The translations under genes were made by a program, and so were the position numbers. From a virus (Duplodnaviria; Heunggongvirae; Uroviricota; Caudoviricetes), in IMG/VR virus record IMGVR_UViG_3300044640_000771: DNA of 64,000 nt. The stretch is one strand, 5' to 3'. Positions 7,285 to 64,000 of the stretch are shown here, one piece after another; positions within the stretch are counted from its first letter, which is position 1, and each line of letters opens with the position of its first letter. The notes under the pieces were generated by a model. It had not been told where the DNA came from and searched no databases. It saw nothing but the letters and a program-made list of their open reading frames with translations.

Positions 7285-7295
7285 AGGAGAAACTT

Positions 7296-8111: not shown

Positions 8112-8119
8112 AGGAAACT

Positions 8120-9895: not shown

Positions 9896-9901
9896 TGAAT
9901 A

Positions 9902-9925
9902 CCTCCCTTCGGGGAGGTTTTCTTC
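9902..9925 (+). terminator. rho-independent terminator
   Basis: CCTCCC-TTCG-GGGAGG hairpin followed by TTTTCTTC. Confidence 0.6.
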
Positions 9926-9937
9926 ATTGGAGAACAA

Positions 9938-10531: not shown

Positions 10532-10532
10532 C

Positions 10533-38139: not shown

Positions 38140-39035
38140 ACCAAGCCTTCGATTTCAATACTATACAAAGCGTATTCTGGATATGAAATGTCCATGTCAA
38201 ACGATTTATAGAATCCATACACAATCAAAGCTTCTTCATATGTCGGATTATCTGAAGCAATCCAAACTGAAGGAGAAGCACGAAGTGAATATAGTAACTG
38301 TTGTACTCGATTTAGTTGTGGATTCTTCACAATAACCTGAGTACTTAATCTCTTGCTGTATGCTCTTTCAACGAAAGTAACCGTACCGAAATCGTCAGTA
38401 TTCTTCTTAGAGAAGTCGATGATACCAGCGGTTGCTCCAAATTGAGTCATACCAATTTCTGTTAGTGTTCCGAAGATACATTCACCTACGGAAATATTTG
38501 TACTTGATGTAAATTCCAAAGTAATATGGCAGTTCACATACGGAGGGATGTTTGAGAATACTAACTGAGTACGTTTCAGCAGAGGATCGTAGAAGAAGTA
38601 CTGATACCAGTCAGTAACCGTAGCTCCACTCAAACCACCTGTGTATTCATATACGATAGGGCCACCGGCACCATTCCGTACAGTTAGTTTCGCAACATCT
38701 GCGTTTAAGTTAATCAATGCAAGCGAATCAATCGCTGCACCCGGTGAAATTACCACCGTCAAAGTTGTACCTGCTGTTGTAGCTGCCGAAATCGTTCTAT
38801 CGAACATGGCATATCTATTTGCAGGACCGTAATCTGACCACCATGCTGCATTAGCAAGTAAGTCAGGTTGTTTATTCGTGTTGGCGGCTTGTAGGCTGAT
38901 ATATAACCTAGTACCGTAAACTACAATGGCATCCTTTGCATACGTTGTAGCAGAAGACCATGTAGGGTTAGATTCACTAGCAGTAGATGATAACAACATG
39001 CTAGATTGAAATGCTTTTGGACTAATAACCTTCAT
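38136..39035 (-). CDS. tail protein downstream of TMP (distal tail protein / Dit-like candidate)
   Basis: 299 aa, beta-rich, first gene after the tape measure protein. Confidence 0.4.
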   Translation of the reverse strand: MKVISPKAFQSSMLLSSTASESNPTWSSATTYAKDAIVVYGTRLYISLQAANTNKQPDLLANAAWWSDYGPANRYAMFDRTISAATTAGTTLTVVISPGAAIDSLALINLNADVAKLTVRNGAGGPIVYEYTGGLSGATVTDWYQYFFYDPLLKRTQLVFSNIPPYVNCHITLEFTSSTNISVGECIFGTLTEIGMTQFGATAGIIDFSKKNTDDFGTVTFVERAYSKRLSTQVIVKNPQLNRVQQLLYSLRASPSVWIASDNPTYEEALIVYGFYKSFDMDISYPEYALYSIEIEGLV

Positions 39036-46170: not shown

Positions 46171-47400
46171 TTAAGCCTGACTGTCTTGGATAGTGATAGT
46201 TGTTACTTCACCACCAGTAGCGTTGCTAGCGTTCAATAGAGCTTGGAAGTCCATTGAAGCAGTAATCGCTGTTTCAGTGTCATCACGAGTAAAGCTGTTT
46301 AGCTTAACGCGAGGTAGGGTAATACTGATAACGTCAGCAGTTGCAGCGTTTGAAGCTGTCAGTGTGAAGATCAGTGATACTTCTGTTTCGTCCTTAAATG
46401 CGTTACGAGCAACGGCATCAGTGAAGTAAACAGATAGTGAACCATCTACAGCAGCACGACCAGTGAAAACTTCAGCAATACTGTTTGAACCTAGAACGGT
46501 AGCGTTGCTTAGGTTACGGTTTACGTTAATTGAAGCATCGGTAATAACCGCTACAGGAGTACCGTTGAAGATAACTACACCGTTAACACCAGCGAATACA
46601 CCACCAGTACCTTGTGTTGGGCTAGTGAAGTATTGTGATGTTGAAGTTAGAGCCAAGTCCTTACCCATGAAACCGATATCGACCGTAGCCATACCAGTAG
46701 CAGGTAGAGAGATACCTAGAGTATTTACCTTAACACCAGTATAAACTTCTGACTGAGCAATGTTAGCAAACCATTCTTCAACAGTGAAAGAATCGTTAGT
46801 GTGACCAGTCTGAGGAACCCAAGTCTTCTTACCAACTACAGCGATGGCAGTAGCTGCACTTGAAGAGCTAGGAGTGATAGTAGAACCGTTTACAACAACG
46901 ACACTTGCTACAGTAGCTGTCAGAGCAACGATAAGCAAGTTCTTATTCAGTACGTCAGCATTTAGACCAGTACCTGCGCTAATACGCATTACGTCACCGA
47001 TACGGAATCCGTCAGTAATCCAGCTACCAGTTACACGAGTAAGAGGATATACACCGGATACTGCAGCACCTACAGTCAGGTTACCTGTACCAGCGTGAGC
47101 AGCAGTAGCACCAGCTGTGAAATCACGAGTAAGAACAGCAGCCATAAAGTCTGCGTATGAACCAGCAGAAAGTTCACCATTTAGTGACCCTTCAGCAGAA
47201 CGTACACCGTGGCGCATGTCTGAGATTTGATAGTCAGTACGTAGTTCTTCTGACTGATATGTTTCTTTTGATAGGTTAAACGCAGCAGTAACACGACGCA
47301 TTGCTTTTGCGCCAGCACCGCCTGCAGCCGCAGTTCCCCATTGACCTGCACCTTCTTTCTTGTAAGCTACTACTTTGCTTACGCCTTGAGCTAATGGCAT
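46171..47400 (-). CDS. major tail (tube) protein
   Basis: 409 aa, beta-rich, position equivalent to lambda V. High expression implied by its own terminator. Confidence 0.5.
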   Translation of the reverse strand: MPLAQGVSKVVAYKKEGAGQWGTAAAGGAGAKAMRRVTAAFNLSKETYQSEELRTDYQISDMRHGVRSAEGSLNGELSAGSYADFMAAVLTRDFTAGATAAHAGTGNLTVGAAVSGVYPLTRVTGSWITDGFRIGDVMRISAGTGLNADVLNKNLLIVALTATVASVVVVNGSTITPSSSSAATAIAVVGKKTWVPQTGHTNDSFTVEEWFANIAQSEVYTGVKVNTLGISLPATGMATVDIGFMGKDLALTSTSQYFTSPTQGTGGVFAGVNGVVIFNGTPVAVITDASINVNRNLSNATVLGSNSIAEVFTGRAAVDGSLSVYFTDAVARNAFKDETEVSLIFTLTASNAATADVISITLPRVKLNSFTRDDTETAITASMDFQALLNASNATGGEVTTITIQDSQA

Positions 47401-50245: not shown

Positions 50246-50956
50246 TTAATTTTCCTTATTAAATTTTGTTTTCCAATTGTTATCTAGACTTGGATTCCAT
50301 CCAGACCTAAACATTTTGATTAGTGATTGTGAATTTCCAGGGGTTAGTCCCGTTAACTCACAAAACACTTTAATTGATATTTTGTGCCTAGAATTTGCGC
50401 ACATTGTTAACATCTGTTCAAAACTGTTGAAGTAAACATCTGCTTTCTCCCATAAAGTTAGATTTGCTCTAGAATTCTCCCAAGCAAGTCCTTTATTTAA
50501 TTTAGCAAGACGCTGTTTACCCTTGGTTACTTCCGATGCAACTCTACCTCTGTTCAAAGTCTTGAACTTTTCTCTATACGTTTCATCTTCAGCATACTTT
50601 TTCTTTAGTCCAAGACTAATTTTCATTTTGATGCTATCGGTGAAATGTTCCCTAGTTGTATTCGAATCATGCTTGCCACCAACTGAGTGATTCAATCCGA
50701 TATTTACCTTTGGTCGCAAAGATTTCTCTAAGTCAAGACAATATTCAGATGAACCAATAAGAAGAATAGTCATTCTATAATCATCATACTTTCGCATCGC
50801 GTTATAGAGTCTATGATTTTTCTTCTTGCTTTCTTTAGTATACAAATGATGTTTCCACCTTGAGTCTGGATTAATTGAAATTCCAATATAACCCTCTTCT
50901 AGTAGATTCGTATCACTAGGGCGATGTATCCAGTATAGATAACAAACGTCAGTCAA
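50246..50956 (-). CDS. GIY-YIG homing endonuclease inserted between the decoration and capsid genes
   Basis: CYLYWIHRPSDTNLLEEGYIGIS GIY...YIG motif. Basic C-terminal DNA-binding region. Confidence 0.7.
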   Translation of the reverse strand: MTDVCYLYWIHRPSDTNLLEEGYIGISINPDSRWKHHLYTKESKKKNHRLYNAMRKYDDYRMTILLIGSSEYCLDLEKSLRPKVNIGLNHSVGGKHDSNTTREHFTDSIKMKISLGLKKKYAEDETYREKFKTLNRGRVASEVTKGKQRLAKLNKGLAWENSRANLTLWEKADVYFNSFEQMLTMCANSRHKISIKVFCELTGLTPGNSQSLIKMFRSGWNPSLDNNWKTKFNKEN

Positions 50957-50958
50957 TT

Positions 50959-51357
50959 TTAGACCGTATCATTTACCTGAATACCCTTGGCTTCCAGTGA
51001 TGCGTAGATAGCATCCTTTTCAGCTTGCAGGTCTTGAGTAGCGTCAAGAATCAGAGCGCCCTTAGAAACGATAGCTGGACCCTTGATCAGAACCATCACT
51101 TTCTTGTCGGTGTTCAGAGCAGCAGTAACGTCTTCCATCAGGATAGCGTCAGCTACCAGTGAACCGTCAGCGGCACCTTGTACGGGAATCTTGTACTTAC
51201 CACTTGCGGTAACCTTACCCAGAACTGTACCAATCTTCAGATCACCAGCAGTACCATTGTAAGTTACAACAGCACGGCAGAAACCGTGATTAGCCCAGAA
51301 CTCGTCCTTAAGCATGTTGCTCAGGCGCTTGTTTTCAGTTGCGAATGCAATAGCCAT
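50959..51357 (-). CDS. head decoration protein (gpD-like)
   Basis: 132 aa between the scaffold and capsid genes, as in lambda. Confidence 0.45.
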   Translation of the reverse strand: MAIAFATENKRLSNMLKDEFWANHGFCRAVVTYNGTAGDLKIGTVLGKVTASGKYKIPVQGAADGSLVADAILMEDVTAALNTDKKVMVLIKGPAIVSKGALILDATQDLQAEKDAIYASLEAKGIQVNDTV

Positions 51358-51369
51358 TTTATTTTTCCT

Positions 51370-52335
51370 TTATTTCTGTGCGTATTTAGCTTTGAGTACT
51401 TTTGATACTTGAGATTCCGCAACGGGAGTATCTTCAACATCAACAGTAGCACCAGTTTCCTTGAACATTTCTGACTTCTCTACGATAGCCTGCATTCCTG
51501 CTAGCACTTCGACTGAAGCATCAAATTCAGCATCACTTTCTAGAAGAGAAAGGGCCTTGAATAGAGATTCTGCTTTAGCTTCGTCCTTAACAGCGGCTTT
51601 TAGTTTATCGAAACGAGACTTACGAATCATTTCTTGCTTTTCAGCCTTAAATACATTGAGTTCTTCAAGAGCCTTAGCAAGTTCAACCTTAATGGTGTCA
51701 TTTGCTTTCTTGATTTCTTCTAGTTCATCCATGTAATTTTTTCCTTTGTTAACATTCTCAGAAGGTTCAACCTTCGTTTGTGTTTCATCCGATTGTTTAG
51801 CTTTCGCTACGGCTTCGGTTGAGCCTTCTTCAGCTTTAGCTTTTGCAGCTTTGGCAGAATTCTTTTCGATCTTAGCAAGTACTTTCTCAAGCTTAGATTG
51901 TGACTTGAGTACTTTCAGATATTTATCTTCACCTAGTGCAAGAATATCAGCAGCGATATCCTTTGATTCATTAAGTGACTTCAATACTTCGAACTGATCC
52001 AGACGTTCTTGGATACGATTTTCATACCAATCTTCGTAACTGTCAGTATCTTCAACTTCATCTTCTACTTCAACGTAACCCATCATGCGCGCAAGTACTT
52101 CAGCATCTTCGTAATAAACGTTGAAGAATTTACGCAAGAACTCAGGAAGTTCCATAGTAACTCGGACTTGTTGCATCTTGGTTACGAATTCTTGAGAGAA
52201 TCCTGTAGCTTTCATTACAAGAGCGTAGTCATGACCATTTGCTGGCCCACCTTGCTGCTTGCTTACTAGAGCTACGTGAGCACCTTCGTGTTGGAAACTA
52301 ATGTCAGATAGCTTTCGTTTTGCTTTAGTTGTCAT
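51370..52335 (-). CDS. capsid scaffolding protein
   Basis: 321 aa, acidic, long coiled coil (EKVLAKIEKNSAKAAKAKAEE...). Immediately after the protease gene with an ATGA overlap. Confidence 0.55.
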   Translation of the reverse strand: MTTKAKRKLSDISFQHEGAHVALVSKQQGGPANGHDYALVMKATGFSQEFVTKMQQVRVTMELPEFLRKFFNVYYEDAEVLARMMGYVEVEDEVEDTDSYEDWYENRIQERLDQFEVLKSLNESKDIAADILALGEDKYLKVLKSQSKLEKVLAKIEKNSAKAAKAKAEEGSTEAVAKAKQSDETQTKVEPSENVNKGKNYMDELEEIKKANDTIKVELAKALEELNVFKAEKQEMIRKSRFDKLKAAVKDEAKAESLFKALSLLESDAEFDASVEVLAGMQAIVEKSEMFKETGATVDVEDTPVAESQVSKVLKAKYAQK

Positions 52336-52718
52336 TCTTCTTCACCTTCCAGTGTTTCAACAGCAGCCAAAGCGCCGATTGATAGTCCGTTAATTTCACC
52401 TGACTTCATCAGTTCCCATAGATTATCATCTAGAGCCTGTACTGTAGCTAGCCAAGTACCTTTCTTAACTTCCTTGTCACCTAGAATAAAGTCTGTTGGA
52501 CAGACATATGATTCTACGAATTCAAATGATTCGGATTCTACTAGGTGAAACAAGTTAGCTTGCATCGAGAATTTATTGAAGTTATGACATGCTTTACGCA
52601 CTTCATCTTCAGAAATAGTATCTCCGTGAGCATCAACTTCGTCAGGAACCAATACAATGTAAGTGGCCTGCTTTAGTTCTTCATTCACAGCTTTCGCAAT
52701 CTTTGTACGTTTTGTCAT
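52332..52718 (-). CDS. prohead maturation protease (HK97 gp4 / S78-like, short)
   Basis: DAHGDTI and C-terminal INGLSIGALAA resemble the S78 family D-x-GD and GLSIGF catalytic-Ser motifs. AAGGAG SD. Strong promoter upstream. Confidence 0.45.
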   Translation of the reverse strand: MTKRTKIAKAVNEELKQATYIVLVPDEVDAHGDTISEDEVRKACHNFNKFSMQANLFHLVESESFEFVESYVCPTDFILGDKEVKKGTWLATVQALDDNLWELMKSGEINGLSIGALAAVETLEGEEE

Positions 52719-52750: not shown

Positions 52751-52779
52751 ATTATATCACAGTTTAATGGTAATGTCAA
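52751..52779 (-). promoter_or_regulatory. perfect consensus sigma70-type promoter on the minus strand (TTGACA-N17-TATAAT) driving the protease-scaffold-capsid operon
   Basis: Reverse complement reads TTGACATTACCATTAAACTGTGATATAAT. Shares the TTGACATTACCA core with the 46086 promoter. Confidence 0.7.
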
Positions 52780-52784
52780 GGTAA

Positions 52785-54104
52785 TCAATACGGTTTGATG
52801 AATACAGTAGTAATATCTTCAGTATTCAGATAGATAGTTGAGTCTGTATTAGGTCCGATGTATACAACTTCAGCATCCGGCATTATCTCAGCAAGAACGA
52901 AGTACAAGAAGTCGATATCAGAAGTAACCTGCGTCAACCCTTGAATCAAGTATGTACAAGAGCGTGAAGAAGTTAATCCAAAGCGAACCTTGAATTCTTC
53001 CGTCAGTGTAGAACTGCTGGCTTGTCTTACTGTATAAGTCTGAGGCTGGTTATTACCAACCTGTACTTGAATCACATAGTTTACACCCGCAGAACTATTT
53101 ACACTCTGCAGAATGCTGTAAGAGATTCCGTTCGTTGCGTTTACTTGAGTTCTAACCTTGTATGAGACACTGTAGGAAGTAATTACTCCCGTTGCATTCA
53201 AGATGTTATAAACTACATCGGTACTAGCAAGAGTGCTTGTTCTAATGTTGTAGCTTACAGATTGATTTCTTGAAGCTGAACCTCGGATCAGATAAGATAG
53301 AACGTCTGATTCACTTACTGAAGTTCTTACGAAATAACTAGCAGAATCTGTCTCTTGAACAGATGCTCGCACAGAATAGTTCGGTGAAGTAACTCTTTGT
53401 ACCTGCGCGCGGATCGAATATCCGCTTGCGGAAGTATTCAATGTAGCAGAACGAACTACATAAGAAGAACTGTCTAATTCAGTAACTCCGGTTCTTACGA
53501 AATAGTTACCAGCAGAAGCTCTTGTTAGTTCTGATCTTACATTGTAAGTTGCACTTCTACTTTGTTGAGCAGAAGTTCTTACGTTATAAGAAGCAGAATT
53601 AGAACCTGCTACTAATCCAGCAACACCATACGCAGCAGCAATTGATTTGTTAATCTGAGTGCGTACTAAATATGAAGAAGATGTTTGTCTTGTTGCTGAA
53701 GTTCTGATCGTGAAACTGACTGATCGATTTGAAACAATAAGTTCTAGAATGTTGTAAGAACCAGATACAGTTCTTGATGCTAGACCTCTGATTCCAAACA
53801 AAGCATTCAACAGTGATGTAACCTGAGTCAATCCTCCACCAGCAAGAGTACTGAAACTAGCTTCAACAACTGAAGAATAGTTTGTTCCGTCAGACCAAAC
53901 AAAAGCAATCTTGTAGTCTGTACTTGCGGTTAATCCACTTGCAGCAGTAGGCCAATCAAATTGTCCGCTGGTATTCGGATCAGGAGTATTACCTGCCCAA
54001 GTTGCAGCGGAACCATTTGGAGCTAAACCAGCGATAACGTTGTTAGCACTAGGAGTGTACCAGCCAGCAGCCGGTGCAATAATTGAATAGATAGTTCCTA
54101 GCAT
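52785..54104 (-). CDS. structural-like protein with 14-residue tandem repeats (x-SY-x-VRT-x7)
   Basis: About 14 consecutive repeats such as SYNVRTSAQQSRSA, TYNVRSELTRASAG, NYFVRTGVTELDSS. Paralog of 58272..59408. Confidence 0.5.
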   Translation of the reverse strand: MLGTIYSIIAPAAGWYTPSANNVIAGLAPNGSAATWAGNTPDPNTSGQFDWPTAASGLTASTDYKIAFVWSDGTNYSSVVEASFSTLAGGGLTQVTSLLNALFGIRGLASRTVSGSYNILELIVSNRSVSFTIRTSATRQTSSSYLVRTQINKSIAAAYGVAGLVAGSNSASYNVRTSAQQSRSATYNVRSELTRASAGNYFVRTGVTELDSSSYVVRSATLNTSASGYSIRAQVQRVTSPNYSVRASVQETDSASYFVRTSVSESDVLSYLIRGSASRNQSVSYNIRTSTLASTDVVYNILNATGVITSYSVSYKVRTQVNATNGISYSILQSVNSSAGVNYVIQVQVGNNQPQTYTVRQASSSTLTEEFKVRFGLTSSRSCTYLIQGLTQVTSDIDFLYFVLAEIMPDAEVVYIGPNTDSTIYLNTEDITTVFIKPY

Positions 54105-54111
54105 CTTAACC

Positions 54112-54909
54112 TCAGTATTGTACGTTTAGTTCTGGTTTAGCGGAATTGGCGGCTATGTCGATAACACCAGGGGAGGTTAGGTCAGGAATTAAAACACCTG
54201 AATCACCTGTTGGGGCGAAGAGAGGATAACTCGTTTTTGTTAGGATTTGCCAAGGATTTCGTGTTAGCTCTCGGATCTCTAGGTCGGCCAGGACTCTAGA
54301 GTAGTTGTATCCAAAAAGCAGTTCAGTATCACTTGGGCAAACACTAGTGTTATCTCTTGCCTGGAAGCTGCTTAAAGAGCCAGTATTAGCGTTGTTCTGC
54401 TTTACGCCATTAACCCATAGATTGAAAGCACCCTCTCCAGCTGTGTAGGCTACTGTAACCCAATCTCCTGCAGTATAGATGGCGTCCGACTCGACTATGG
54501 TGTTAGCTCTGATTGTGGAACCTCTTACCCTGCCTGTCGTCAAGATATCAATAGAGGCGCCTTCACCAGAGATGTTGTTGAATCCAAAAACAGCCCGGTC
54601 TGCAAAGCTTTTTATCCGAAATCGGCAAATAATTGTAAAGGGTGACGCTGTATTGATAGGCGCTTCGTTCTTAAACGTATATGAAATATTAGGCGAACTG
54701 ACACTGGTAGACATCACCCGCCCTTCTCTTGACACATGCTGACTCATCAAGTTGCCATTAGAATTGGCAAACCACAGCCGTCTGCTGATAAGCTCAAGAT
54801 GCGGCGTGACACCATTCCAGGCTCCTTCTAAACCCCTTGACAGAGGGTGCCCCCAATTTACCCAGATAGGTACCTGAGGCTGCGAGGTAAATACTTCATT
54901 TTTATGCAC
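54112..54909 (-). CDS. concanavalin A-like lectin / LamG-like domain protein
   Basis: Beta-rich. C-terminal LTRNPWQILTK motif shared with the two domains of the neighbouring 512-aa protein. Confidence 0.4.
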   Translation of the reverse strand: MHKNEVFTSQPQVPIWVNWGHPLSRGLEGAWNGVTPHLELISRRLWFANSNGNLMSQHVSREGRVMSTSVSSPNISYTFKNEAPINTASPFTIICRFRIKSFADRAVFGFNNISGEGASIDILTTGRVRGSTIRANTIVESDAIYTAGDWVTVAYTAGEGAFNLWVNGVKQNNANTGSLSSFQARDNTSVCPSDTELLFGYNYSRVLADLEIRELTRNPWQILTKTSYPLFAPTGDSGVLIPDLTSPGVIDIAANSAKPELNVQY

Positions 54910-54916
54910 AATTACC

Positions 54917-56455
54917 TCACTTCGGAAGGATTAATTGGGATTGGTTCTTGAAGAGTTGCCAGGGATTATTGCTGATAGAACGTACTTCTGCAAAACTCAA
55001 AGCTCTTGTCCAACCTGCGACCGTAATAAAATCTATAGCACCGATAGTCACTAGCCCTGTAACTAAGATTCCATGTCTACCTTGACCGTTCCAGTAGCTA
55101 GGAGCTTGATCAAACATTAGAATGCCATCAATATATAGTTTTACATTAGTTGCAGAAGTTACTGTAACAATATCGTAATACTTTCCTAGTTCTGCAGTAA
55201 GAGCAATTGGAGTCTTGATGAAAGTTCCTGTATAAAGTTCAACGTAGAAAGTTGCATTAGTACCAGCGTACAATCCGACACCTAAGTTAAAAGCATCACC
55301 CAAGAAGTTACAATCACCACTTGTGAATGAATTTAACTTCATTCGACAGTAACTCGTGAATATAGAAGCTCCCGTATTTAGGAAACCTACACCACAGTTA
55401 AGGTTAAAAGCCGTGTATGCTAGTCCCATCGGAGTAGGTTTTGCACCTACATTGTTTGTTAGGCTTGTAGATCGTTCACTCGTTGGCTGAGAGATTTTAC
55501 CCAACATTCCTTTTACATCAGCGTGACCAACGTAAGGTGGAGTGAATAAGTCAAACAATGATCTTGTAATCGAATTTGACCAAGCTATTTCAATTGCCGA
55601 AGCGTTAACTGGTTGTCGTGATAGAACCTTCTTAGTATCGCCAGTAGGAACATTGACGACAGTAGTATCACTCAACTTACGCTTAGACGTACCAAGTAAA
55701 GTAGATTCACGCAGAATCGGTTTTCTGTTTTCTTTGGTTGTGACATCCAGGGGTGTGTTAACTTTCTTATAGAACAATTGCCAAGGATTATCATGAAACG
55801 CTTTACACTCTGCTTCCCCCCAAGGAGTTGAACTATACCCCGCAATAACTATATCTGCATCTAAGTCCCATTCAGTACCTCCTGAATATCCACCAAAGTT
55901 AAGAGTCTTAGGTTCGCTATTGATTAAGGCATTACCGATTCCCTGTACACGACGAATACCGTCAAAGTACACATCCGTAGATCCCGATCTTGCACTAAAT
56001 ACCACACTGCGATTTCTACTGTTTGCAAGATTTGGGGCACCAGTTCCAGATGTTGCACCTACGTAAACTCTACCATCAGAAACCAATTGTAAGTATGAAC
56101 TTGCAGAAGTAGTCGATAGGAAAATACAATTGACACCTAGATCGTAAACTCCAAATCTTGGCATCCATACAAAGAAAGTTCCGGTAGCACCACCCATATG
56201 AGGATAATCAGCACTCTGGAAAACACGGGAAGTTGTCCCATCAAACCTTGATGAAATACCTGATTGTGTCAGCGCACTTGTCGCACCATTCACCGGTGTC
56301 CAAATAGCGCTTGTATTGACTAAATCGACTAACTTACCTGATCGCTGCATCAGTAGCATCTGCAACCCTCTACCTAATCCTGAGTAATCAACTTGGACAG
56401 CACCTTGAGGTTGCTTGGTACAAGGTAAATATCTGGGTAGTACTACATCTGTCAT
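54917..56455 (-). CDS. tandem LamG/lectin-like domain protein
   Basis: Two related domains ending FHDNPWQLFYKK and ISNNPWQLFKNQ. Confidence 0.4.
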   Translation of the reverse strand: MTDVVLPRYLPCTKQPQGAVQVDYSGLGRGLQMLLMQRSGKLVDLVNTSAIWTPVNGATSALTQSGISSRFDGTTSRVFQSADYPHMGGATGTFFVWMPRFGVYDLGVNCIFLSTTSASSYLQLVSDGRVYVGATSGTGAPNLANSRNRSVVFSARSGSTDVYFDGIRRVQGIGNALINSEPKTLNFGGYSGGTEWDLDADIVIAGYSSTPWGEAECKAFHDNPWQLFYKKVNTPLDVTTKENRKPILRESTLLGTSKRKLSDTTVVNVPTGDTKKVLSRQPVNASAIEIAWSNSITRSLFDLFTPPYVGHADVKGMLGKISQPTSERSTSLTNNVGAKPTPMGLAYTAFNLNCGVGFLNTGASIFTSYCRMKLNSFTSGDCNFLGDAFNLGVGLYAGTNATFYVELYTGTFIKTPIALTAELGKYYDIVTVTSATNVKLYIDGILMFDQAPSYWNGQGRHGILVTGLVTIGAIDFITVAGWTRALSFAEVRSISNNPWQLFKNQSQLILPK

Positions 56456-56485
56456 ATTATCTCCATAATAGCTACCCAGAGTAGC

Positions 56486-56971
56486 TTAGTTGTAAAAAGT
56501 TTCTACGTATTCAGCATAATGCCCCGAAGCTGCTAAAGCCGCCCCAGTCTGATTCTGAATGACAATACCCCATTTGCGAGGTACAAAACCTAAAGCACCT
56601 ACAACACTGCCTTCTAGTTTATTCGTTTGGCTAGGTACAGCCGATACAGACTGTAACCATTTTAGTGCAATATTACCAAACGAGCCCAATGTAATAGAAC
56701 CAGCAGTTCCAGTAACAACTTCTACAGTACCAGTAGCACCAGGATAACTATTGTCATCGTTAGTACCCCACACGAATACCGTAACCAGAGTACTAGCGGA
56801 TTGAGTGTGAGCGCCACAAACTACACCAACGTTTACAGTAATGTCTGTAACATTGTTTGTTGTAGAGCTAATCACTTCGTTTGATTGCGCCGCTGCGGTT
56901 GCGCTTGAAGCCAAGCTGTTTACAGCCGTACCCAAGTTAACAGCAGCAGGATTACTTCTTTGAATTGCCAT
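56486..56971 (-). CDS. hypothetical beta-rich structural-like protein
   Basis: 161 aa, Thr/Val/Gly-rich. Confidence 0.35.
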   Translation of the reverse strand: MAIQRSNPAAVNLGTAVNSLASSATAAAQSNEVISSTTNNVTDITVNVGVVCGAHTQSASTLVTVFVWGTNDDNSYPGATGTVEVVTGTAGSITLGSFGNIALKWLQSVSAVPSQTNKLEGSVVGALGFVPRKWGIVIQNQTGAALAASGHYAEYVETFYN

Positions 56972-56973
56972 TA

Positions 56974-57402
56974 TTAAACTCCCTGTTCGTCAAAAGCTGC
57001 TTGAACTTGTGACCAATCTACTGTATCAGGAACAGAAGCTAGACCTTTTAGGTTTGCAGCTTCAGTTGCTGTAATTGCTCCACCAGCAGCCAATTGATCC
57101 AACAGAAGTTGAGTAGCAGGATCGCCAAGGTCGATACCTTCTGTAGTACCTAGAAAACGAACTGCGCGCTTAACTAGGCTAGCCATTGGATGTGCAGTTT
57201 GTGAAAATACTTCAAGCTTTGTAAGTACAGCATCAGCCTCAACTGGTCCCGTAGGATACTTTGCTAGAATTCCGCGCTCACCCATTAGTGTCTGTACTGT
57301 CTTTGTACGACCAATGTTTAGAAACGCAGCAATTTCATGCATGTTTCTACGAGCCAGCATTTCAGCAGAGCATTTTGTTTGAATTTCATTCCATAGAGAC
57401 AT
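56974..57402 (-). CDS. hypothetical protein
   Basis: 142 aa, alpha-helical. Confidence 0.35.
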   Translation of the reverse strand: MSLWNEIQTKCSAEMLARRNMHEIAAFLNIGRTKTVQTLMGERGILAKYPTGPVEADAVLTKLEVFSQTAHPMASLVKRAVRFLGTTEGIDLGDPATQLLLDQLAAGGAITATEAANLKGLASVPDTVDWSQVQAAFDEQGV

Positions 57403-57427
57403 GGTATCTCCTTATTCTAATTGTCAA

Positions 57428-57922
57428 TTAAGGGTTGCTATCGCCTTGAACAGCAATAGTGAATGAATCAGCTACAGCAGCAGTACCAGCGTTAACAGTA
57501 CGACGAATCCAGATTGACTTAGTTGCACCAACAGCTAGATCACCAATTGAAAGACCAGCAGCAAAGTTAGCAGGTTCAGAGAACGTTACGCCTGAAGGAG
57601 CAGTTGTTTCGTTAGCAACAGTTTGTTCTGTTGCGTTGATCGCAGCAGTACCTAGACCAATAGCTACAGTAGTTGTAGCAGAAGGAGTATTCGTCTGGAT
57701 GAATACTTTCGGAGCAATCAGAGTTAGAGTACCGTTAGTATTCTTTACGTAGATACAACGATATTCAACCGTACCAGTTGTAGCTTCAGCACTTGGAACA
57801 TCGTCAAAAAGACTTGCAGTTGTTTCTGTTGTAGAAATTACACCACCCAAAGAAGCATTAGGGTTGGCATTACCAGCACCACCAGAGAAGTAGTATTTGA
57901 TATCGGTAGATAGAATCGGCAT
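57428..57922 (-). CDS. hypothetical beta-rich structural-like protein
   Basis: 164 aa, Thr/Ala-rich. Confidence 0.35.
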   Translation of the reverse strand: MPILSTDIKYYFSGGAGNANPNASLGGVISTTETTASLFDDVPSAEATTGTVEYRCIYVKNTNGTLTLIAPKVFIQTNTPSATTTVAIGLGTAAINATEQTVANETTAPSGVTFSEPANFAAGLSIGDLAVGATKSIWIRRTVNAGTAAVADSFTIAVQGDSNP

Positions 57923-57931
57923 TTTATTTCC

Positions 57932-58285
57932 TTAGTTACGAGTGACTTCCTGACTCACAGAGACACTTCCCTGCAGCAGTCGAATAGGTTTTGATAGAGA
58001 ATCTAGTAGTTCTAGATCGTACACATACTTCAGAGAAGTAAATGCTGTTGTGTCTGCCTCAGACAAGTTGATTTCAACAGAAGATGTTCCAGTGTCAATA
58101 ATCAGCTTACCGTTTGCAGTACTTGCGTCAACAGCTACTTGACTACTACTAACATATGGTCTAAACTGCATTCTGGCAGTCCAACCTGTCATGTTAGGTA
58201 GGGAATTATCCTCATTTCTTACGAGGAATTTTTTCTTATATGGAATCCCTTGTTCGATTTCCAGATCGAATTTAGTTGCGGCCAT
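57932..58285 (-). CDS. small conserved protein, paralog B of a duplicated module
   Basis: MAATKFDLEIEQGIPYKKKFLVRNED...YDLELLDSLSKPIRLLQGSVSVSQEVTRN. Paralogous to 60254..60592. Confidence 0.45.
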   Translation of the reverse strand: MAATKFDLEIEQGIPYKKKFLVRNEDNSLPNMTGWTARMQFRPYVSSSQVAVDASTANGKLIIDTGTSSVEINLSEADTTAFTSLKYVYDLELLDSLSKPIRLLQGSVSVSQEVTRN

Positions 58286-59408
58286 AATTGTCTTTCTTAT
58301 AGATAACAGAGATTAACTGTTTAGGTAACAGATATACGGTGCTTGAAGGATTAGTTGACAAGGTAATAGTGACTGCCGTATCATCGATTTTTCCAAGTAC
58401 GTTATAAGTAAACGAAACCTGTCGGTAAATTACCGAAGACAATTCAACATTATACCACAGATTTATCTGTTTTTCTACAGTTTGGCGAACAGAATAACTA
58501 CACAACCCAGAATTCGTAGTAGAAACTCTAACAAAGTATGAACTAGGTAGAGAATTCTGAATCAACTGTCTTACGTTATAAAGAGAAGTTATACTATCAG
58601 ATACTGAACTACGAACAAACCAAGACGATGAATATTGATTAACTGCAATCAGCGAGTTCAGAATGTCATAGTTAAACGACCTGTCTTTACTCGTGAAAGT
58701 TCTTATGTTGTAACCAGCATACGTACTTGACGAACTAGATTGTCTAACTAAATAGGACAATACACTGGTCTGTAACGTAGACAGTCTTACAAAATAAGAC
58801 TTACTTCCACTCTTTGAAACACTCTGACGGATGCTGTAGCTTCCGTTTTGTATTGTTACGGAGAATCCTCGTACTCTATAAGAAGCAGAACTATCTCTAT
58901 ATGCAGAAGTTCTTACGACATAAGATGGAGTGTTAGTTCCAGTCGATATCTGTCGGATCAGGTAGGACTGGTTTCTTGTGTTGGATACTGAAGTTCGAAC
59001 TGAATAACTTACGTTTTGTACGTTTGATACAAAACCAGACACACCATACGAAACTAATCTGGTGTTTTGTACTTGTTGTCTAATCGCGTAATTTACAGAC
59101 GCAGATTTTGTAGCAGAGGTATATACAGAATACGAGAACGCATCTGATGAATTCTGTTGCGTTCTAATCTGAAAGTTCGCAGAGATTGCAGACTGAACCT
59201 CTGATCTAGCAGCGTAGTTATATGCTAAGTTTCTAGAAACTGAAGTTCTTGTATTCCAGTTTGCTGAAGATGAAGCGGATACTTGGACTAAGCTTTGAAC
59301 AACATCGAAGTAATCATCAGATACGATTAAACCAGCGGGAGTGTCCCAAAAATCAGAACCACCGGAAAACCATATCGGTCTATCTGTTTCAGGACTTCTG
59401 ATTGACAT
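58272..59408 (-). CDS. structural-like protein with 14-residue tandem repeats (paralog of 52785..54104)
   Basis: SYSVRTSVSNTRNQ, SYLIRQISTGTNTP, SYVVRTSAYRDSSA, SYRVRGFSVTIQNG... Confidence 0.5.
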   Translation of the reverse strand: MSIRSPETDRPIWFSGGSDFWDTPAGLIVSDDYFDVVQSLVQVSASSSANWNTRTSVSRNLAYNYAARSEVQSAISANFQIRTQQNSSDAFSYSVYTSATKSASVNYAIRQQVQNTRLVSYGVSGFVSNVQNVSYSVRTSVSNTRNQSYLIRQISTGTNTPSYVVRTSAYRDSSASYRVRGFSVTIQNGSYSIRQSVSKSGSKSYFVRLSTLQTSVLSYLVRQSSSSSTYAGYNIRTFTSKDRSFNYDILNSLIAVNQYSSSWFVRSSVSDSITSLYNVRQLIQNSLPSSYFVRVSTTNSGLCSYSVRQTVEKQINLWYNVELSSVIYRQVSFTYNVLGKIDDTAVTITLSTNPSSTVYLLPKQLISVIYKKDNYGRN

Positions 59409-59411
59409 ACT

Positions 59412-60245
59412 TTATCCGTGAGCTAGTTTACCACCACCCCTTACAGTTCCTGTGCTGGTAGTAGAAGTTAATTGAATCATGAATAGTGCTGATGAATTCG
59501 GTACGTTAGCCAAACCCAATTGAGCCCAATCTGCCGTTTCTGTTTTATTTGCAACATTCAAAGACAGTAGAGTTCTAGGTCGAGTTGCTGTAACTCCGAA
59601 ACTACCTGCTGTTCCTGTAGTTGCTGATAACTGTACAGTATTTACTGCACGAATAAACTTGCCAGGATTAGCAGCATTCAAACCGTTCAACGGAAGCATA
59701 AATGAAGCGGGACGAGTAGCGGCAAGAGAAGCGCTCAAGTTAGCAGTTGTGCCATCGTTAAATGTAACAGTAACTGTAGCGGTAACAGCCGTACCACCTG
59801 TTGCTGTATACCATTCTAGCCACCACTGTACATCAGAGTAGTTAGAATCACCAATTCGTTCTGTTAAATTTGATGTAGCAAGATTTGCGTTTAGATCAAC
59901 GTTCACCGTTTGAGCAGTAGTTAGCGTACCATTTAGACCACCCACGTGCATCAATCTATCGTGGAACTCCACAGTAACTGCCGAGTTAGAACAAACAGCA
60001 TTTGCCCAAGCTAGATATGAAGTTGATGGACTAGTTTGCTGAGTAAAGTTGAAAGTACCTAACAGGCTATTATTACAAACAGCCGCTGCAGCAGGAATAG
60101 CACCTTGTCCTGGTTGACCTGTAGCTCTCCAAAGAGATACATACGTACCAGCTGCTTGTGAAGCAATGGAAGCTTTATCAATAACAAGACGACTGCTATT
60201 ATTAGCCAGCGCATCAATCAGTGCATCACGAGTTGAAATAGTCAT
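59412..60245 (-). CDS. hypothetical beta-rich structural-like protein
   Basis: 277 aa, Thr/Ala/Asn-rich (TATGGTAVTATVTVTFNDGTTANLSASLAA). Confidence 0.35.
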   Translation of the reverse strand: MTISTRDALIDALANNSSRLVIDKASIASQAAGTYVSLWRATGQPGQGAIPAAAAVCNNSLLGTFNFTQQTSPSTSYLAWANAVCSNSAVTVEFHDRLMHVGGLNGTLTTAQTVNVDLNANLATSNLTERIGDSNYSDVQWWLEWYTATGGTAVTATVTVTFNDGTTANLSASLAATRPASFMLPLNGLNAANPGKFIRAVNTVQLSATTGTAGSFGVTATRPRTLLSLNVANKTETADWAQLGLANVPNSSALFMIQLTSTTSTGTVRGGGKLAHG

Positions 60246-60253
60246 ATAAATCC

Positions 60254-60592
60254 TTATCTTGTAACTTCAGGACTAACCTGAACTTTTCCTTCAAGCAGTC
60301 TCACTGGTTCATCCGATGCATCTAACAATTCAAGATCGTAGTAGTATTCAGCATACTTCAAATTTCTAGTCTCTTCTTCCGAGAGATTCAAGTAAACAGT
60401 AGACGCAACGATTGAAATTCTGCCGTTGTAAGTACTAGACTCTAACTCTACTTTTAGACTAGAGTAAGCGATCCTGAAGTGCATCCTAGCGTTAAAACCT
60501 GACAAGTCTTTAGGACTAAGATTTTCATTTCTTACAATGAACCCCTGTTCGAAAGGAATTCCTTGTTCAATTTCAAGCAGATGATTTTTCAT
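60254..60592 (-). CDS. small conserved protein, paralog A of a duplicated module
   Basis: MKNHLLEIEQGIPFEQGFIVRNEN...YDLELLDASDEPVRLLEGKVQVSPEVTR. Confidence 0.45.
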   Translation of the reverse strand: MKNHLLEIEQGIPFEQGFIVRNENLSPKDLSGFNARMHFRIAYSSLKVELESSTYNGRISIVASTVYLNLSEEETRNLKYAEYYYDLELLDASDEPVRLLEGKVQVSPEVTR

Positions 60593-60887
60593 GTTCTAAC
60601 TTTCTGATCAAACGCTTGGCATCAAGAACAATCTCTTTTCCATTTCGCTCAAGTCTTCCGTATAGAACACCGTAATCATCGTGCAGCAACTTAGCTACTT
60701 TGCACCATTCCTCAAAGGTTATACTTTCACCGTCAGATTTCAACGCTGCATGTAAATATGCAGTGTTATCCCCCAATAGCTCAACTTGAATTACCCCGAT
60801 GTACGAATCTTTGTTTTCGTAGTTATCGGGGCTTCTGTATAACCTAAGAGTCAATGACGTTACTTGCGCGTGCCATTGAGTTTTCAT
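60573..60887 (-). CDS. hypothetical protein
   Basis: 104 aa immediately downstream of the portal gene. Confidence 0.35.
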   Translation of the reverse strand: MKTQWHAQVTSLTLRLYRSPDNYENKDSYIGVIQVELLGDNTAYLHAALKSDGESITFEEWCKVAKLLHDDYGVLYGRLERNGKEIVLDAKRLIRKLEHEKSSA

Positions 60888-60894: not shown

Positions 60895-62379
60895 CTATGC
60901 TTTGTTATCTAGATTATCAGATGAATTATCTTCACCGGCTACTTTGTCAGAAGTACCGTTTCCTGATCCCTTTTCCATTCCGTCGCCAGAACGAGAAGTT
61001 GCATCAGATAGATATTCCTCTCTCGGTTCTACATCTTCCGCAATAGGATCAAGGCCAGCGGCAGTTCTAACTGCGTTCAGCACAGGACGATCTTTCTCAA
61101 CAAGACCAACGGAAGTAACACGTTGCCAGTATTTGCTTAGAGTTTCCAGATCAACAGCATGTAGACCTTCATAGTCAAGTGTTGAACTTCTGGCTACATT
61201 CCAACCATTTAGCTCATACAATTGACGGATCACATCACGATTGAAAACCTCTACGATGTTGTCAAGCATTGACTCTACAGCAGAACCTGTTAGACTGTTC
61301 TTGATTTGACCTAGAGCAAAGGAACCTACTCCACCTTGACCTAGAATCAGAACGTCAGCAAACAATCCTGTGTAAATCATGTTCTGGTAGTACTCTTTCA
61401 CCTTACCAGTGTCAAAGTTCTTCTTACCACCTTCCGTACTCAATAGAGTAAGATCAAACAGAGCCTGTCTTGTTTCAGGATCGGTCTGAGAAGGTAGAAT
61501 AACACCAGATTGACTGTTGTTTTGAATATTACGAATGATGTTCTTAAAGTTCTCGTAGATAGCCTTCTGATCTGGACTAGCATCATCAGACATATACTGC
61601 GCAGGAATCTTTAGGACAGGCATACCTTGCAAATCGCGCGCAACACCAGCCGCTTCAATTTCCTGAATGACTGTAAGGTATCGCCACGCAAGGTAAACGT
61701 CACGAAGCGGAGATTTACCGTATGGATCATTTCTGTTTCTCCCTGTGGTTACAAGCATTACCTTAGAACGAGGAAGAACAACTTCTAGTTCTTGTTTGCT
61801 GCGGTTACCGTAGAGCTTTCCATTCTGTACGTTAGTCAGATTCTGCTTAACACCTAGAATTTCATTTCCGCTGTCATCAAAGATAAACTTCTCAATAGTT
61901 TCTTGACTTCTCAGTGCAATCTTCTTCAGAGCAATCTTGTTGTCTGAATACATGCTACCACTGTTAGTATTTCGTCTGCGGTATACCTTTTCAAGTACAG
62001 CAAATCCGTAAATATTAGAAGACAATGCATCTTTGATTACTTGTCGGAAAGGAACGTCCATGTCATGTAGACATTCCTCTACGAACTCAGCTTGTTTCTT
62101 TTCTTCTTCCGTTGCATTCTTAGGAGGTACAATTCTCCAAGTTACCTTTGAAATAAGATTCTCATAGAGTTGCAGACAAGCGTTGACACTTGTGTGGTAA
62201 CTCATTTCTCGGTAAGTCTTAATGTTATAGGGGAAGTTTAGCTCTCGCTTAATTTCTTCATTAGTTACACCGTCAAAGATCGAAAGACCTGAGTAGCCAA
62301 TTTCACCAATACGAAAACGTTCTGGTTGATCTTCTGGTGCAATCGCTTTTTCTACAGTTTCAGTTCTTTTTCTAGCCAT
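60895..62379 (-). CDS. portal protein
   Basis: 494 aa directly downstream of the large terminase. Acidic C-terminus. Size and position typical of a portal. Confidence 0.6.
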   Translation of the reverse strand: MARKRTETVEKAIAPEDQPERFRIGEIGYSGLSIFDGVTNEEIKRELNFPYNIKTYREMSYHTSVNACLQLYENLISKVTWRIVPPKNATEEEKKQAEFVEECLHDMDVPFRQVIKDALSSNIYGFAVLEKVYRRRNTNSGSMYSDNKIALKKIALRSQETIEKFIFDDSGNEILGVKQNLTNVQNGKLYGNRSKQELEVVLPRSKVMLVTTGRNRNDPYGKSPLRDVYLAWRYLTVIQEIEAAGVARDLQGMPVLKIPAQYMSDDASPDQKAIYENFKNIIRNIQNNSQSGVILPSQTDPETRQALFDLTLLSTEGGKKNFDTGKVKEYYQNMIYTGLFADVLILGQGGVGSFALGQIKNSLTGSAVESMLDNIVEVFNRDVIRQLYELNGWNVARSSTLDYEGLHAVDLETLSKYWQRVTSVGLVEKDRPVLNAVRTAAGLDPIAEDVEPREEYLSDATSRSGDGMEKGSGNGTSDKVAGEDNSSDNLDNKA

Positions 62380-62390: not shown

Positions 62391-63872
62391 TTAATCAGTA
62401 ATGTCAGGTAAAGCTAATCCTGAAGTCGGTATAGTTACACCAGATGATAGACGATCAACAGGTGAAGAGCTTGAGAAATCTGCAAGGTTAAAAGTAGGGA
62501 TAATCAAGTCTTTATTCAGCAACGTAAAACAGTCGCTTACACAGTCAACTTGGTCATCTTTTGTCTTACCTGAACCATCGAAGATTTCCAGTTCATCATA
62601 GAAATCCTTATTCCAGTGACCTTCAACTACATGCACGAAACCTGCCTGTGCTACACTAGCAAAAGGAGCAAATCGAGTTACCTTAGATTTGACAGGCTTC
62701 TGCAGCTTGCACAAGTAACCCATTTCTGCTAATCTACGCTGTAGATCACGAGCATAAGCCGCAGCAGCAGCGTTAGGGTCTTGAGGAATAGAAATCGTAA
62801 CGTCCATTCCATCCATCAAGGCAGTCTTGAAGATTAGTTGTTCTACTTCGTGTACTCTGTCCCTTAGACCTACTACATCTTCTACAGTGTAAATCTTAGT
62901 CTTTTCATCCTTGGAAATCAGAACCCCTCTAGTCCAGTCAGGATTAGGATATTGTTCTGAAGGCTTAGAGAAAGCCAAGTCCCATGCACGAATTCTCTTC
63001 TTTGCGTGAATGTTAGGATGCGGAACTTCCTTTACCCAATCTCGCTTGAATAGTCCAGAAGCTTCAGGTCTTGCAAACCAAGAACCAAGTAGCAGTCGTT
63101 CCATTTCTACGCGAGGCATAGACATTAGACGGCTAATATAGTCTGGTTGAGCCTTAAGCAGTGGAGGATTATCCTTACAAGTAGCAGGGATGAATGTAAA
63201 TGAAGAAATACCAGACTCTGCACCCTTACCGTGAACAGCTTCAGCTTCTTCCAGTGAATTGTACCAGAGCATACTATTGCTCTGACGGAAGAAGTATCGC
63301 TTGACACCAGCGAGTTCATCTTTAGGAATTCCAGTCATCGGATCAAGATAGAAGTCTTGAATCCACATTCTCAGGAATGAGTGATAATCAGGGTTAGTCA
63401 TCAAGAACATCTGTGGTCTATAATCTACATAAGCATTACGCATACGAGATAGCAAGTAAACCACCATGTCTTCAGTAAAGTCGGTAGCTTCGTCAAAAGC
63501 TACGAAAGAATATTGTCCACCCTTGTGGGAATACATATCGGAAGCATGTTGCATGTGAGAGAACTTAAGTAGTGCTCCGTTGGGAAACACAATCTCATTC
63601 TCTCTGTGACGGATACGAAGACCTGTCTTATAAATGCTTGTGTACATATTCACTGCTTCGTGCCAGATTGAACCTGGAGCAGTAATCATCTTACTAGTTC
63701 TACGGAAGATAACTCCAGTAGCTCTAGGGTGTTGCATGAATCGCAACGCAATTAAAAGTGAAGTATAGGTTTTACCTGAACCGGCGGCACCGCCGCACAG
63801 AGTAATATCTGTGTCACTGTTCAAAAATAATTCCTGCTTTTTACTAGCAGGTGCTAAAATCAGATTACTCAT
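62391..63872 (-). CDS. terminase large subunit
   Basis: Walker A LCGGAAGSGKTY. Walker B-like FVAFDEATD. C-terminal nuclease region. Likely ATG start at 63872 (the ORF track uses a TTG at 63899). Confidence 0.85.
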   Translation of the reverse strand: MSNLILAPASKKQELFLNSDTDITLCGGAAGSGKTYTSLLIALRFMQHPRATGVIFRRTSKMITAPGSIWHEAVNMYTSIYKTGLRIRHRENEIVFPNGALLKFSHMQHASDMYSHKGGQYSFVAFDEATDFTEDMVVYLLSRMRNAYVDYRPQMFLMTNPDYHSFLRMWIQDFYLDPMTGIPKDELAGVKRYFFRQSNSMLWYNSLEEAEAVHGKGAESGISSFTFIPATCKDNPPLLKAQPDYISRLMSMPRVEMERLLLGSWFARPEASGLFKRDWVKEVPHPNIHAKKRIRAWDLAFSKPSEQYPNPDWTRGVLISKDEKTKIYTVEDVVGLRDRVHEVEQLIFKTALMDGMDVTISIPQDPNAAAAAYARDLQRRLAEMGYLCKLQKPVKSKVTRFAPFASVAQAGFVHVVEGHWNKDFYDELEIFDGSGKTKDDQVDCVSDCFTLLNKDLIIPTFNLADFSSSSPVDRLSSGVTIPTSGLALPDITD

Positions 63873-63877
63873 TATAT

Positions 63878-64000
63878 CATGAATTGTCAGGAGAATCAAG
63901 GACTCTTAGAGACAACATCGGAGTATTATTTTCTTCTTGTACTTCGGTAGCAGCGTCCTCTGCTTCATCTTCTCCGCCATATAGGTCTAGAGATAGTTTT
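63878..64000 (-). CDS. partial CDS (C-terminal end; possibly small terminase subunit)
   Basis: Minus-strand frame ...KLSLDLYGGEDEAEDAATEVQEENNTPMLSLRVLDSPDNS-stop ends 3 nt before the terminase ATG. Confidence 0.3.

Follow-up and report, generated by a model that had tools for sequence, protein, structure and literature searches.

Collar proteins that hold side fibres on the virion have been described for several phages. p132 of T5 and its counterpart LtfC of DT57C form a 12-subunit collar which anchors the lateral fibres (PMC10038345, PMC10713586); p132 together with p140 has been called a landmark of T5-like phages only (PMC10038345). Twelve small beta domains of the Stf protein of Ur-lambda ring the tail and hold the side fibres (PMC12617516). 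Members of Felixounavirus (Bas63, Sf14, Felix O1) possess an Ig-like collar ring anchoring appendages; in Bas63 it is a 12-subunit neck collar, with gp3 as the portal and gp5 as the whisker (PMC12609058). Another Ig-like ring, that of gp77 of phage GP4, anchors accessory fibres (Fiber I). In TP901-1 (BppU), mycobacteriophage Douge (gp23) and 80alpha (FibU), which have Gram-positive hosts, domains of this kind are N-terminal parts of larger baseplate proteins.

The locus described here compares with these systems as follows. Two paralogous collar-like proteins are encoded in one phage, which is not T5-like, and their genes are located between portal and protease, whereas the gene of T5 and DT57C is found in the tail cluster. 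No p140-like second tube protein, the partner of p132, was noticed in an unsystematic look through the window (the whole stretch of 64,000 nucleotides which was analysed), and the LamG heads, the 14-residue repeats and the protein g277 are unrelated to pb1 or LtfA/B. As in T5, the collar is a separate gene; in Ur-lambda Stf the collar domain is contained within the fibre protein. Felixounavirus shares the same slot, from a related portal of the Mu type to the protease-decoration-capsid genes, and its collar fold resembles the model of g117. However, the slot of Felix O1 holds only two small genes (166 and 110 aa), with no LamG, repeats, g164 or g277, and hhalign of alignment A1, which includes g112, against the collar ORF54 gave a probability of 0.7%; only fold class and slot are common. 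The domain of GP4 gp77 (PF23148) was absent from the block proteins in a Pfam scan, the LtfC-like type being present instead.

The block at positions 52785-60887 is exactly the span of the open reading frames from the portal gene (60895-62379) to the XkdF protease gene (52332-52718), as the preliminary description had delimited it. Eleven genes were found in the block, not 12 as claimed there; all are on the minus strand and tightly packed, with intergenic gaps of -20 to +30 nt. From portal to protease, followed by a promoter and the nearby decoration gene, the features are:

60573..60887, minus strand: g104, small conserved protein, first gene past the portal.
60254..60592, minus strand: g112, candidate Ig-like collar or anchor protein of the LtfC/p132 kind, first gene of proposed cassette 1.
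59412..60245, minus strand: g277, Thr/Ala-rich all-beta protein, candidate receptor-binding domain of proposed cassette 1.
58272..59408, minus strand: g378rep, 45-aa N-terminal segment, then about 20 units of 14 residues in tandem (x-[YF]-x-[VI]-R-x...), then a short domain at the C-terminus.
57932..58285, minus strand: g117, candidate Ig-like collar or anchor protein of the LtfC/p132 kind, first gene of proposed cassette 2.
57428..57922, minus strand: g164, very conserved protein of 163-164 aa, core member of the putative mobile cassette.
56974..57402, minus strand: g142, cassette member.
56486..56971, minus strand: g161, small beta protein rich in Thr, Ala and Ser, at a variable cassette position.
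54917..56455, minus strand: g512, two LamG-like units, each with a terminal NPWQLF.
54112..54909, minus strand: g265, single LamG-like protein with an N-terminal QPQ..W motif and NPWQI.
52785..54104, minus strand: g439rep, N-terminal domain of about 90 aa, then 22-23 14-residue units, with the C-terminal end conserved.
52751..52779, minus strand: sigma-70 consensus promoter in the 66-nt gap before the protease gene, downstream edge of the slot.
50959-51357, outside the block: lambda D-like (HDPD) decoration gene.

The head genes had been regarded as following strict lambda order; this sequence is broken by a GIY-YIG homing endonuclease gene (50246-50956) between the D-like and E-like genes, and the portal belongs to the Mu/Felix O1 type. 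The strong sigma70 promoter noticed beside the block is a perfect TTGACA-17-TATAAT with extended TG, the sole perfect consensus match in the 64-kb window as compared to 0.03 expected; a perfect match is present just upstream of the protease gene also in five diverged relatives (L003, L008, L011, L019, L029). In the phage's own tail tip, only proteins of 299, 221 and 443 aa follow the 2026-aa tape measure, with no recognisable fibre among them. By megablast, none of 50,697 phage records matched the block, scans of Pfam, PHROG and NCBIfam gave no match to a decoration family for any block protein, and the window contained no direct repeats of the type of a DGR template/variable pair near the lectin genes.

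Two paralogous sub-modules had been proposed. Paralogy was found for their first genes, the small conserved 112-117-aa pair g112 and g117 (50% identity, E 3e-36 in pairwise alignment), and for their last genes, g378rep and g439rep (30% identity, E 7e-36), but not for the rest: pairwise tests ruled out that g277, g164 and g161 are mutual paralogs, and gene content is not collinear between the two copies, the middle genes being unrelated. With blastn, a single 34-nt match was obtained between the sub-modules. They are otherwise without DNA similarity, and the duplication was therefore not recent, contrary to what had been supposed, as is also apparent from the low identities of the paralogs.

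In its predicted structure, g117 is a compact single-domain Ig-like beta-sandwich which can be superposed on p132, and it is related to p132/LtfC. The nearest structural relatives of the model were T5 p132, BppU and the neck collars of P74-26 and Sf14, and the neck collar of Bas63 is similar as well; Ig-like folds are common, and in the Foldseek search numerous domains of antibodies and TCRs ranked nearly as high. The protein g112 matched phrog_1084 (E 5e-18) and, weakly, phrog_3304, "L-shaped tail fiber protein assembly" (E 1e-6). A search of the PDB with the profile of A1 returned DT57C LtfC (E 8e-4) and T5 p132 (E 0.43), the best PDB sequence match of the collar family being entry 26dk. The Pfam model LtfC (PF23926) was matched by 7 of 26 homologs (best E 9e-6); g112 and g117 themselves had no Pfam match at E <= 0.1 and are thus below this model. 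A 115-aa protein of L007 was tested as a divergent LtfC and rejected. Both genes precede fibre-like genes, as do homologs in AP1, DC31, L029, L033, L034 and L035, and family members in Acidovorax phage AP1 (hhalign E 3e-35), Pelagibacter phage HTVC008M and DC31 adjoin fibre or baseplate genes.

For the repeat proteins, the 14-residue period was corroborated by an identity of 0.20-0.21 at lag 14 versus 0.08-0.09 in shuffled sequences (z = 7.3 for g378rep and z = 9.9 for g439rep); the units are more numerous than the approximately 14 per protein which had been reported. Residues 3-48 of g378rep share 45% identity with the N-terminal end of an L007 protein of 651 aa; the repeats of the latter are, by eye, about 22 residues long. 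In six homologs of g439rep (P0027, P0028, P0029, P0032, P0034, P0037) the same repeats are located behind an N-terminal LamG domain with NPWQ. Searches with g378rep produced no match (tblastn) or nothing useful (PDB sequences). The AF2 model of g439rep is all-beta and of low confidence (pLDDT 49), and Foldseek matches to it, obtained only at E >= 0.68 and TM <= 0.21, were uninformative; the term "fibre shaft" therefore reflects composition and periodicity only.

The pair g512 and g265 had been described as LamG/concanavalin-like; the Laminin_G_3 (PF13385) score was 27.8 bits for residues 363-456 of g512, barely above the cut-off of 27.6, and 26.2 bits (E 1e-5), slightly under the cut-off, for g265. 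The NPWQ(L/I) motif occurs in three copies, two in g512 (residues 223 and 497) and one in g265. Precomputed PF13385 matches exist for the fused LamG-repeat homologs P0027, P0029 and P0032.

Comparison with L003, a 96%-identical strain, showed replaced stretches only in the N-terminal part of g512 and in the body of g265, besides an 80-nt change of repeat number in g378rep. The counterpart of g512 is a 754-aa protein with a replaced N-terminal part and a C-terminal part of 84% DNA identity, and the body of g265 retains 36% amino acid identity, with no DNA similarity over window positions 54226-54873. The copy of g378rep is 405 aa long because of the indel at 58962-58967.

The protein g277 belongs to a family of about 1300 clusters at 50% identity. 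In some proteins of 710-919 aa its domain forms the C-terminal part, preceded by a GDSL/SGNH esterase, and one such fusion weakly matched tail-fibre PHROGs; a copy with 55% identity in L007 is again directly upstream of a repeat protein. No PDB sequence match was obtained for g277. A protein of about 300 aa which takes the place of g277 in P26059A and L019 proved to have no relation to it. The replacements in L003 and the esterase fusions support the previous view that these are unusually placed fibre or adhesin genes whose products are surface-exposed and diversifying.

The protein g164 matched phrog_13135 and has 928 homologs; among the matches listed, most show 60-70% identity and a fixed length. 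Identity is 60-65% in the myovirus-like contig L027 and the podovirus-like contig L034. It had no PDB, Pfam or NCBIfam match; kinship with the tail tube gene, hinted at by two short DNA matches, was not seen with hhalign. Homologs of g142 occupy the same relative position in L029 (E 3e-28), L030 (E 4e-16) and L032 (E 2e-23), the copy in L034 being linked solely through L029 (E 1e-15). For g161 a homolog was found in L003 only, and hhalign showed it to be unrelated to the small proteins which occupy its place in the cassettes of L029/L034 and L027/L030/L032. The protein g104 is 98% identical in L003 and has a homolog (E 5e-31) in the same slot of L029, between a LamG-repeat gene and the gene of a 565-aa protein. 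Neither g142 nor g104 had a Pfam, PHROG or NCBIfam match.

The block is not an isolated insertion; of the relatives examined, nearly all carry genes in this slot. It is hypervariable, with a length of 0.66-8.5 kb and varying content. A gp77 domain (40 bits) is present in the first slot protein of P26059A, and in E217-like contigs the cassette, with its LamG-repeat gene, adjoins the GP4 gp77 fibre-tail-adaptor gene. An 865-aa protein of L008 and the 565-aa protein of L029, guessed by eye to be pectate-lyase tailspikes, had no Pfam match. The genes for collar, g164, g142, LamG and repeat proteins are found again as a group in unrelated lineages, both myovirus-like and podovirus-like; the whole cassette is present after the adaptor gene in a GP4-like podophage contig (L034), and in L033, which is of the same clade as the phage described here, it is placed after the tail-tube gene. 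A LamG-repeat gene is located inside the head gene cluster in two unrelated lineages. Most likely, related phages use the portal-protease position as a swap site for host-binding fibre genes.

The block thus probably represents two accessory adhesin fibre cassettes, anchored by a collar on tail or neck, and not a capsid decoration. The two cassettes would follow each other in tandem as the 3'-terminal part of the terminase-portal transcription unit. By analogy with p132/LtfC, g112 and g117 may form a ring encircling the tail tube or the neck, into which the N-terminal segments of the fibre proteins would lock. The fibres would consist of the beta proteins g378rep and g439rep with heads of a sugar-binding type, namely g277 in cassette 1 and the three LamG units of g512 and g265 in cassette 2; g164 and g142 would perhaps be adaptor and, possibly, assembly factor. 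Fibres of this kind, attached to the virion, could act in adsorption by a reversible first binding to glycans of the host surface, and heads and repeat number would be exchanged or altered quickly, tracking host variation. The fibres may be attached at the distal tail, in the manner of T5, or at the neck, in that of GP4 and the Felix O1-like phages.

A neck collar-and-whisker complex only, in the role known from Felix O1 and Bas63, which would mainly brace the head-tail joint and not bind to the host, appears unlikely. The two-gene slot of Felix O1, the positions of portal and whisker in Bas63, the likeness of the g117 model to the neck collars of Bas63, Sf14 and P74-26, and the g164 homolog of KVP40, which lies among neck genes between gp15 and gp16, would be consistent with it, but there is no sequence relation to the slot protein of Felix O1, and the closest sequence relatives are tail-tip collars. 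Moreover, the block is eight times the Felix O1 pair in size and contains lectin-type domains; since these are sharply divergent between near-identical strains, they point to host binding and not to bracing.

Capsid appendages, i.e., head fibres or decoration attached to the shell (cf. phi29 gp8.5, T4 Hoc) and mediating weak adherence to surfaces or the host, are quite improbable. The position of the block inside the head gene cluster, and that of the LamG-repeat gene between portal/MuF and scaffold in the unrelated E217-like lineage, speak for them, and so do the fused proteins with LamG N-terminally and a conserved segment C-terminally. Hoc is anchored at its C-terminus, and such an arrangement would fit a Hoc-like topology. 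Against this stand the best structural and sequence relatives of g112 and g117, which are collars of the tail or neck and do not bind capsids, the cassettes after the tail-tube gene (L033) and after the adaptor gene (L034), the tail-fibre clusters which contain the collar-family members of AP1 and HTVC008M, the HDPD decoration gene which the phage already has, and block proteins without a decoration-family match. Head fibres or decoration proteins are hence the least likely of the three placements put forward in the preliminary description, because of the likeness of fold to collars and adaptors, the cassette positions in L033 and L034 and the existing D-like gene; relocated tail-tip proteins are plausible. 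The LamG-repeat gene in head clusters of two lineages would also fit head or neck appendages and counts against collar-anchored fibres. So do the missing LtfC match of g112 and g117 in Pfam, the commonness of Ig-like folds, the fact that no p140-like tube protein was noticed, and the low confidence of the repeat-protein model.

Very improbable is non-structural cargo in a permissive gap at the operon end, such as secreted or cell-surface proteins which alter the infected cell and are not part of the virion: the slot is bounded by a conserved strong promoter and ranges from nearly empty to 8.5 kb, like moron sites, and most block proteins have no annotated family, but the genes are tightly packed in the late operon and lack individual promoters and terminators, the sole recognisable family is a virion collar, and the same genes are found among tail genes in other phages.

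To return to collar-anchored accessory fibres, we tentatively suggest, as a possibility somewhat short of even chances, a self-contained, horizontally mobile "plug-on" adhesin cassette, which would comprise the Ig-like collar, the highly conserved g164, g142, and LamG and 14-residue-repeat fibre proteins, and would fit siphovirus, myovirus and podovirus particles. In it, g164 could be a universal adaptor and the 14-residue repeat a fold absent from solved structures. The conservation of g164 is far above expectation for an adaptor docking onto lineage-specific virion parts and counts against the collar-fibre reading. Through such a cassette, a phage could acquire means of host binding that do not depend on its tail tip.

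A separate collar protein combined with side fibres, the principle of T5, would thus extend to phages far outside the T5-like group, and in a widespread freshwater phage group the position between the portal and the conserved promoter would serve as the swap site for host range. Four abundant families without known function, g164, g277, g142 and the 14-residue-repeat proteins, would be joined into one functional unit across three tail types, and should thereby become open to direct tests in P26059A and DC31, two relatives in culture. For annotation, fibre and adhesin genes should not be sought solely downstream of the tape measure gene.

The eleven genes between portal and protease are most economically read as two putative accessory fibre cassettes, with Ig-like collar rings as anchors and fast-changing lectin-type heads. 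They belong to the late operon, which this long-tailed phage has on the minus strand of the window; the following features are relevant here:

62391-63899, minus strand, large terminase
60895-62379, minus strand, Mu-type portal
52332-52718, minus strand, XkdF-type protease
50246-50956, minus strand, GIY-YIG gene between decoration and capsid genes
46171-47400, minus strand, tail tube protein
39081-45161, minus strand, tape measure protein, very long (2026 aa)
35304-39035, minus strand, tail-tip proteins of 299, 221 and 443 aa, with an HNH endonuclease in between
37276-38139, minus strand, HNH gene within the tail-tip genes
32917-33579, minus strand, NUMOD3-type gene adjoining the endolysin

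After the protease come the head genes for scaffold, decoration protein (lambda D-like) and capsid protein (lambda E-like), with the GIY-YIG homing endonuclease between the latter two. The tail genes are next, for a 409-aa tube protein, the tape measure and the small tip, and the lysis genes close the series. The proteins that were scanned include no sheath protein, and for this reason the phage looks like a siphovirus. Its nearest cultured relatives by portal are two freshwater siphophages, Curvibacter phage P26059A (70%) and Limnohabitans phage DC31 (53%). A J-like protein or recognisable fibre is absent from the tail tip after the tape measure (35304-39035); P26059A possesses a complete lambda-like tail tip, in which a tail component reaches 1644 aa and the phage's own fibre 658 aa. 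The three homing-endonuclease genes break up the late gene clusters; the HNH and NUMOD3-type genes have a 60-nt stretch in common (33515-33574 and 38072-38131, 77% identity), and the endonucleases of P26059A occupy similar, not identical, positions.

A preliminary description had listed 12 genes between portal and protease, where 11 ORFs were counted, separated by gaps of -20 to +30 nt. It had also proposed two recently duplicated, paralogous sub-modules. Paralogy holds for the first genes, g112 and g117 (50% identity), and for the last, the repeat proteins g378rep and g439rep (30%); the middle genes are mutually unrelated, and the two halves have no DNA similarity. The sub-modules are thus two cassettes of a kind and did not arise by recent duplication. 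The 14-residue period of the repeat proteins proved strong (z = 7-10 against shuffles), with about 20 units in g378rep and 22-23 in g439rep instead of the supposed 14 or so, and in each protein a single unit, in a conserved position, is 16 residues long. The NPWQ motif is indeed present, in three occurrences, and the assignment of g512 and g265 as LamG/concanavalin-like is borderline, with a score at the Pfam threshold itself. The strong sigma70 promoter below the block was borne out as a perfect extended consensus; 0.03 such sites would be expected in the window, and this is the only one there.

A profile of the g112/g117 family matched PDB 26dk chain M (E 2.5e-18), DT57C LtfC (E 8e-4) and T5 p132 (E 0.43); the first of these, the best match with a solved structure, is a 197-aa chain labelled "structural protein". 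Pfam LtfC was matched by 7 of 26 homologs, and AF2 modelled g117 with high confidence (pLDDT 93.6). In T5 and DT57C, 12 collar copies encircle a tube-like protein, and the lateral fibres weave their N-termini into this ring (PMC10038345; PMC10713586); in Ur-lambda the fibre has a domain of its own for this role (PMC12617516). Members of the family adjoin fibre or baseplate genes in cultured phages such as AP1, the pelagimyophage HTVC008M and several cyanomyophages; for the last, RefSeq gives "L-shaped tail fiber protein assembly" as the label of the gene.

In other contigs, g439rep has homologs in which one polypeptide comprises an N-terminal LamG domain, then 14-residue repeats and the same C-terminal end; the LamG domain likewise starts with QPQ..W and has the NPWQLF motif. 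In the window these parts are divided between two neighbouring genes, g265 and g439rep. The model of g439rep is all-beta (pLDDT 49), and a fold search with this low-confidence model found no structural match.

The distance from portal to protease in IMG/VR relatives ranges from 0.66 kb (contig L017) over 3.8-6.6 kb up to 8.5 kb (L007). The content of this slot varies, with g117-like, repeat, glycine-rich and large beta-rich proteins; units of the repeat proteins look longer there, about 21-22 residues by eye. In DC31 the slot contains ORF5 (589 aa, fibre-like) and ORF4 (118 aa), termed tail proteins by the authors who described that phage. Since the perfect promoter directly upstream of the protease is kept in five diverged relatives, the slot closes the transcription unit of terminase and portal. 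In the strain L003 (about 96% DNA identity; portal and protease proteins identical), there are exactly three differences: the g378rep repeats have an 80-nt indel, the N-terminal part of g512 has been replaced, and so has g265 (36% amino acid identity). Such a pattern is the usual signature of host-recognition genes.

Further observations were made on these contigs. Upstream of the portal gene, at a distance of a few kb, many relatives have another perfect TTGACA-N16-18-TATAAT site; its counterpart in this phage would fall past the end of the window. Glycine-rich slot proteins (307-333 aa, with extended GGxGG runs), a type not found in the window, are present in several relatives, as a tandem pair in L011. 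Two neighbours in the L008 slot (6804-10620; 865 and 402 aa), neither with a Pfam match, are alike in their first ~40 residues only, which would fit a docking segment shared by exchangeable receptor-binding proteins.

L003 312-339; L011 278-306; L006 6542-6570; L007 2973-3001; L008 726-754; L017 6463-6491; others: second promoter site
L006 13111-14112; L007 10481-11428; L011 8586-10448: glycine-rich slot proteins

One gene set recurs, in which g164 (60-70% identical) and g142 are accompanied by a collar-type protein, a small beta protein that varies, and the LamG and repeat proteins. It occupies the portal-protease slot of the same-clade contigs L029, L035 and L011; in L033, of the same clade, it follows the tail tube gene, and the slot is almost empty. 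In E217-like, myovirus-type contigs it is located between MuF and scaffold, and the small adjoining gene is a GP4 gp77 fibre-tail adaptor in place of an LtfC-like protein. In the GP4-like podophage contig L034, it comes directly after the adaptor gene, whose product matches a GP4 chain; the LtfC-like protein of L034 is a full-length homolog of 26dk chain M. The first slot protein of P26059A carries a gp77 domain, despite the complete tail tip of that phage. In the E217-like contig L027 (7262-9085), the MuF-like head protein has 607 aa, versus 284 aa in the related L030, and a weak intein-splicing match, which suggests that an intein has been inserted.

57428-57922, minus strand, g164
L023 6001-6549, KVP40.0353, homolog of g164 in KVP40

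With 928 matches the g164 family is very abundant; it is also highly conserved, those listed being mostly 60-70% identical and of fixed length. Searches for Pfam, NCBIfam or PDB relatives gave none, and there is no annotation. In KVP40-like Vibrio myophages the homolog is found between gp15 and the small terminase, and that of KVP40 itself between gp15 and gp16. The g277 family comprises about 1300 clusters, and g277 is elsewhere the C-terminal domain of SGNH-esterase proteins.

Two positions of the putative ring, the neck and the distal tail, are candidates. In favour of the distal tail, tail-tip collars are the sole sequence-level relatives of the collar family, AP1 and HTVC008M carry the family gene among tail genes, the L033 cassette adjoins the tube gene, and this phage's own tail tip has no recognisable fibre. 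Attachment to the capsid is the least supported reading, kept in play by the head-cluster position in two lineages. A purely non-structural block is unlikely.

A separate collar protein with side fibres is a principle already known from T5, and the portal-protease slot of Felix O1-like phages is already known to serve collar and whiskers. What appears to be new is this collar family in a non-T5 siphophage clade, in two copies, together with the 14-residue repeats, g164 and g277 as putative fibre components. The slot as a hypervariable swap site, with a conserved promoter as its boundary, and the spread of the cassette over three tail types likewise appear to be new.
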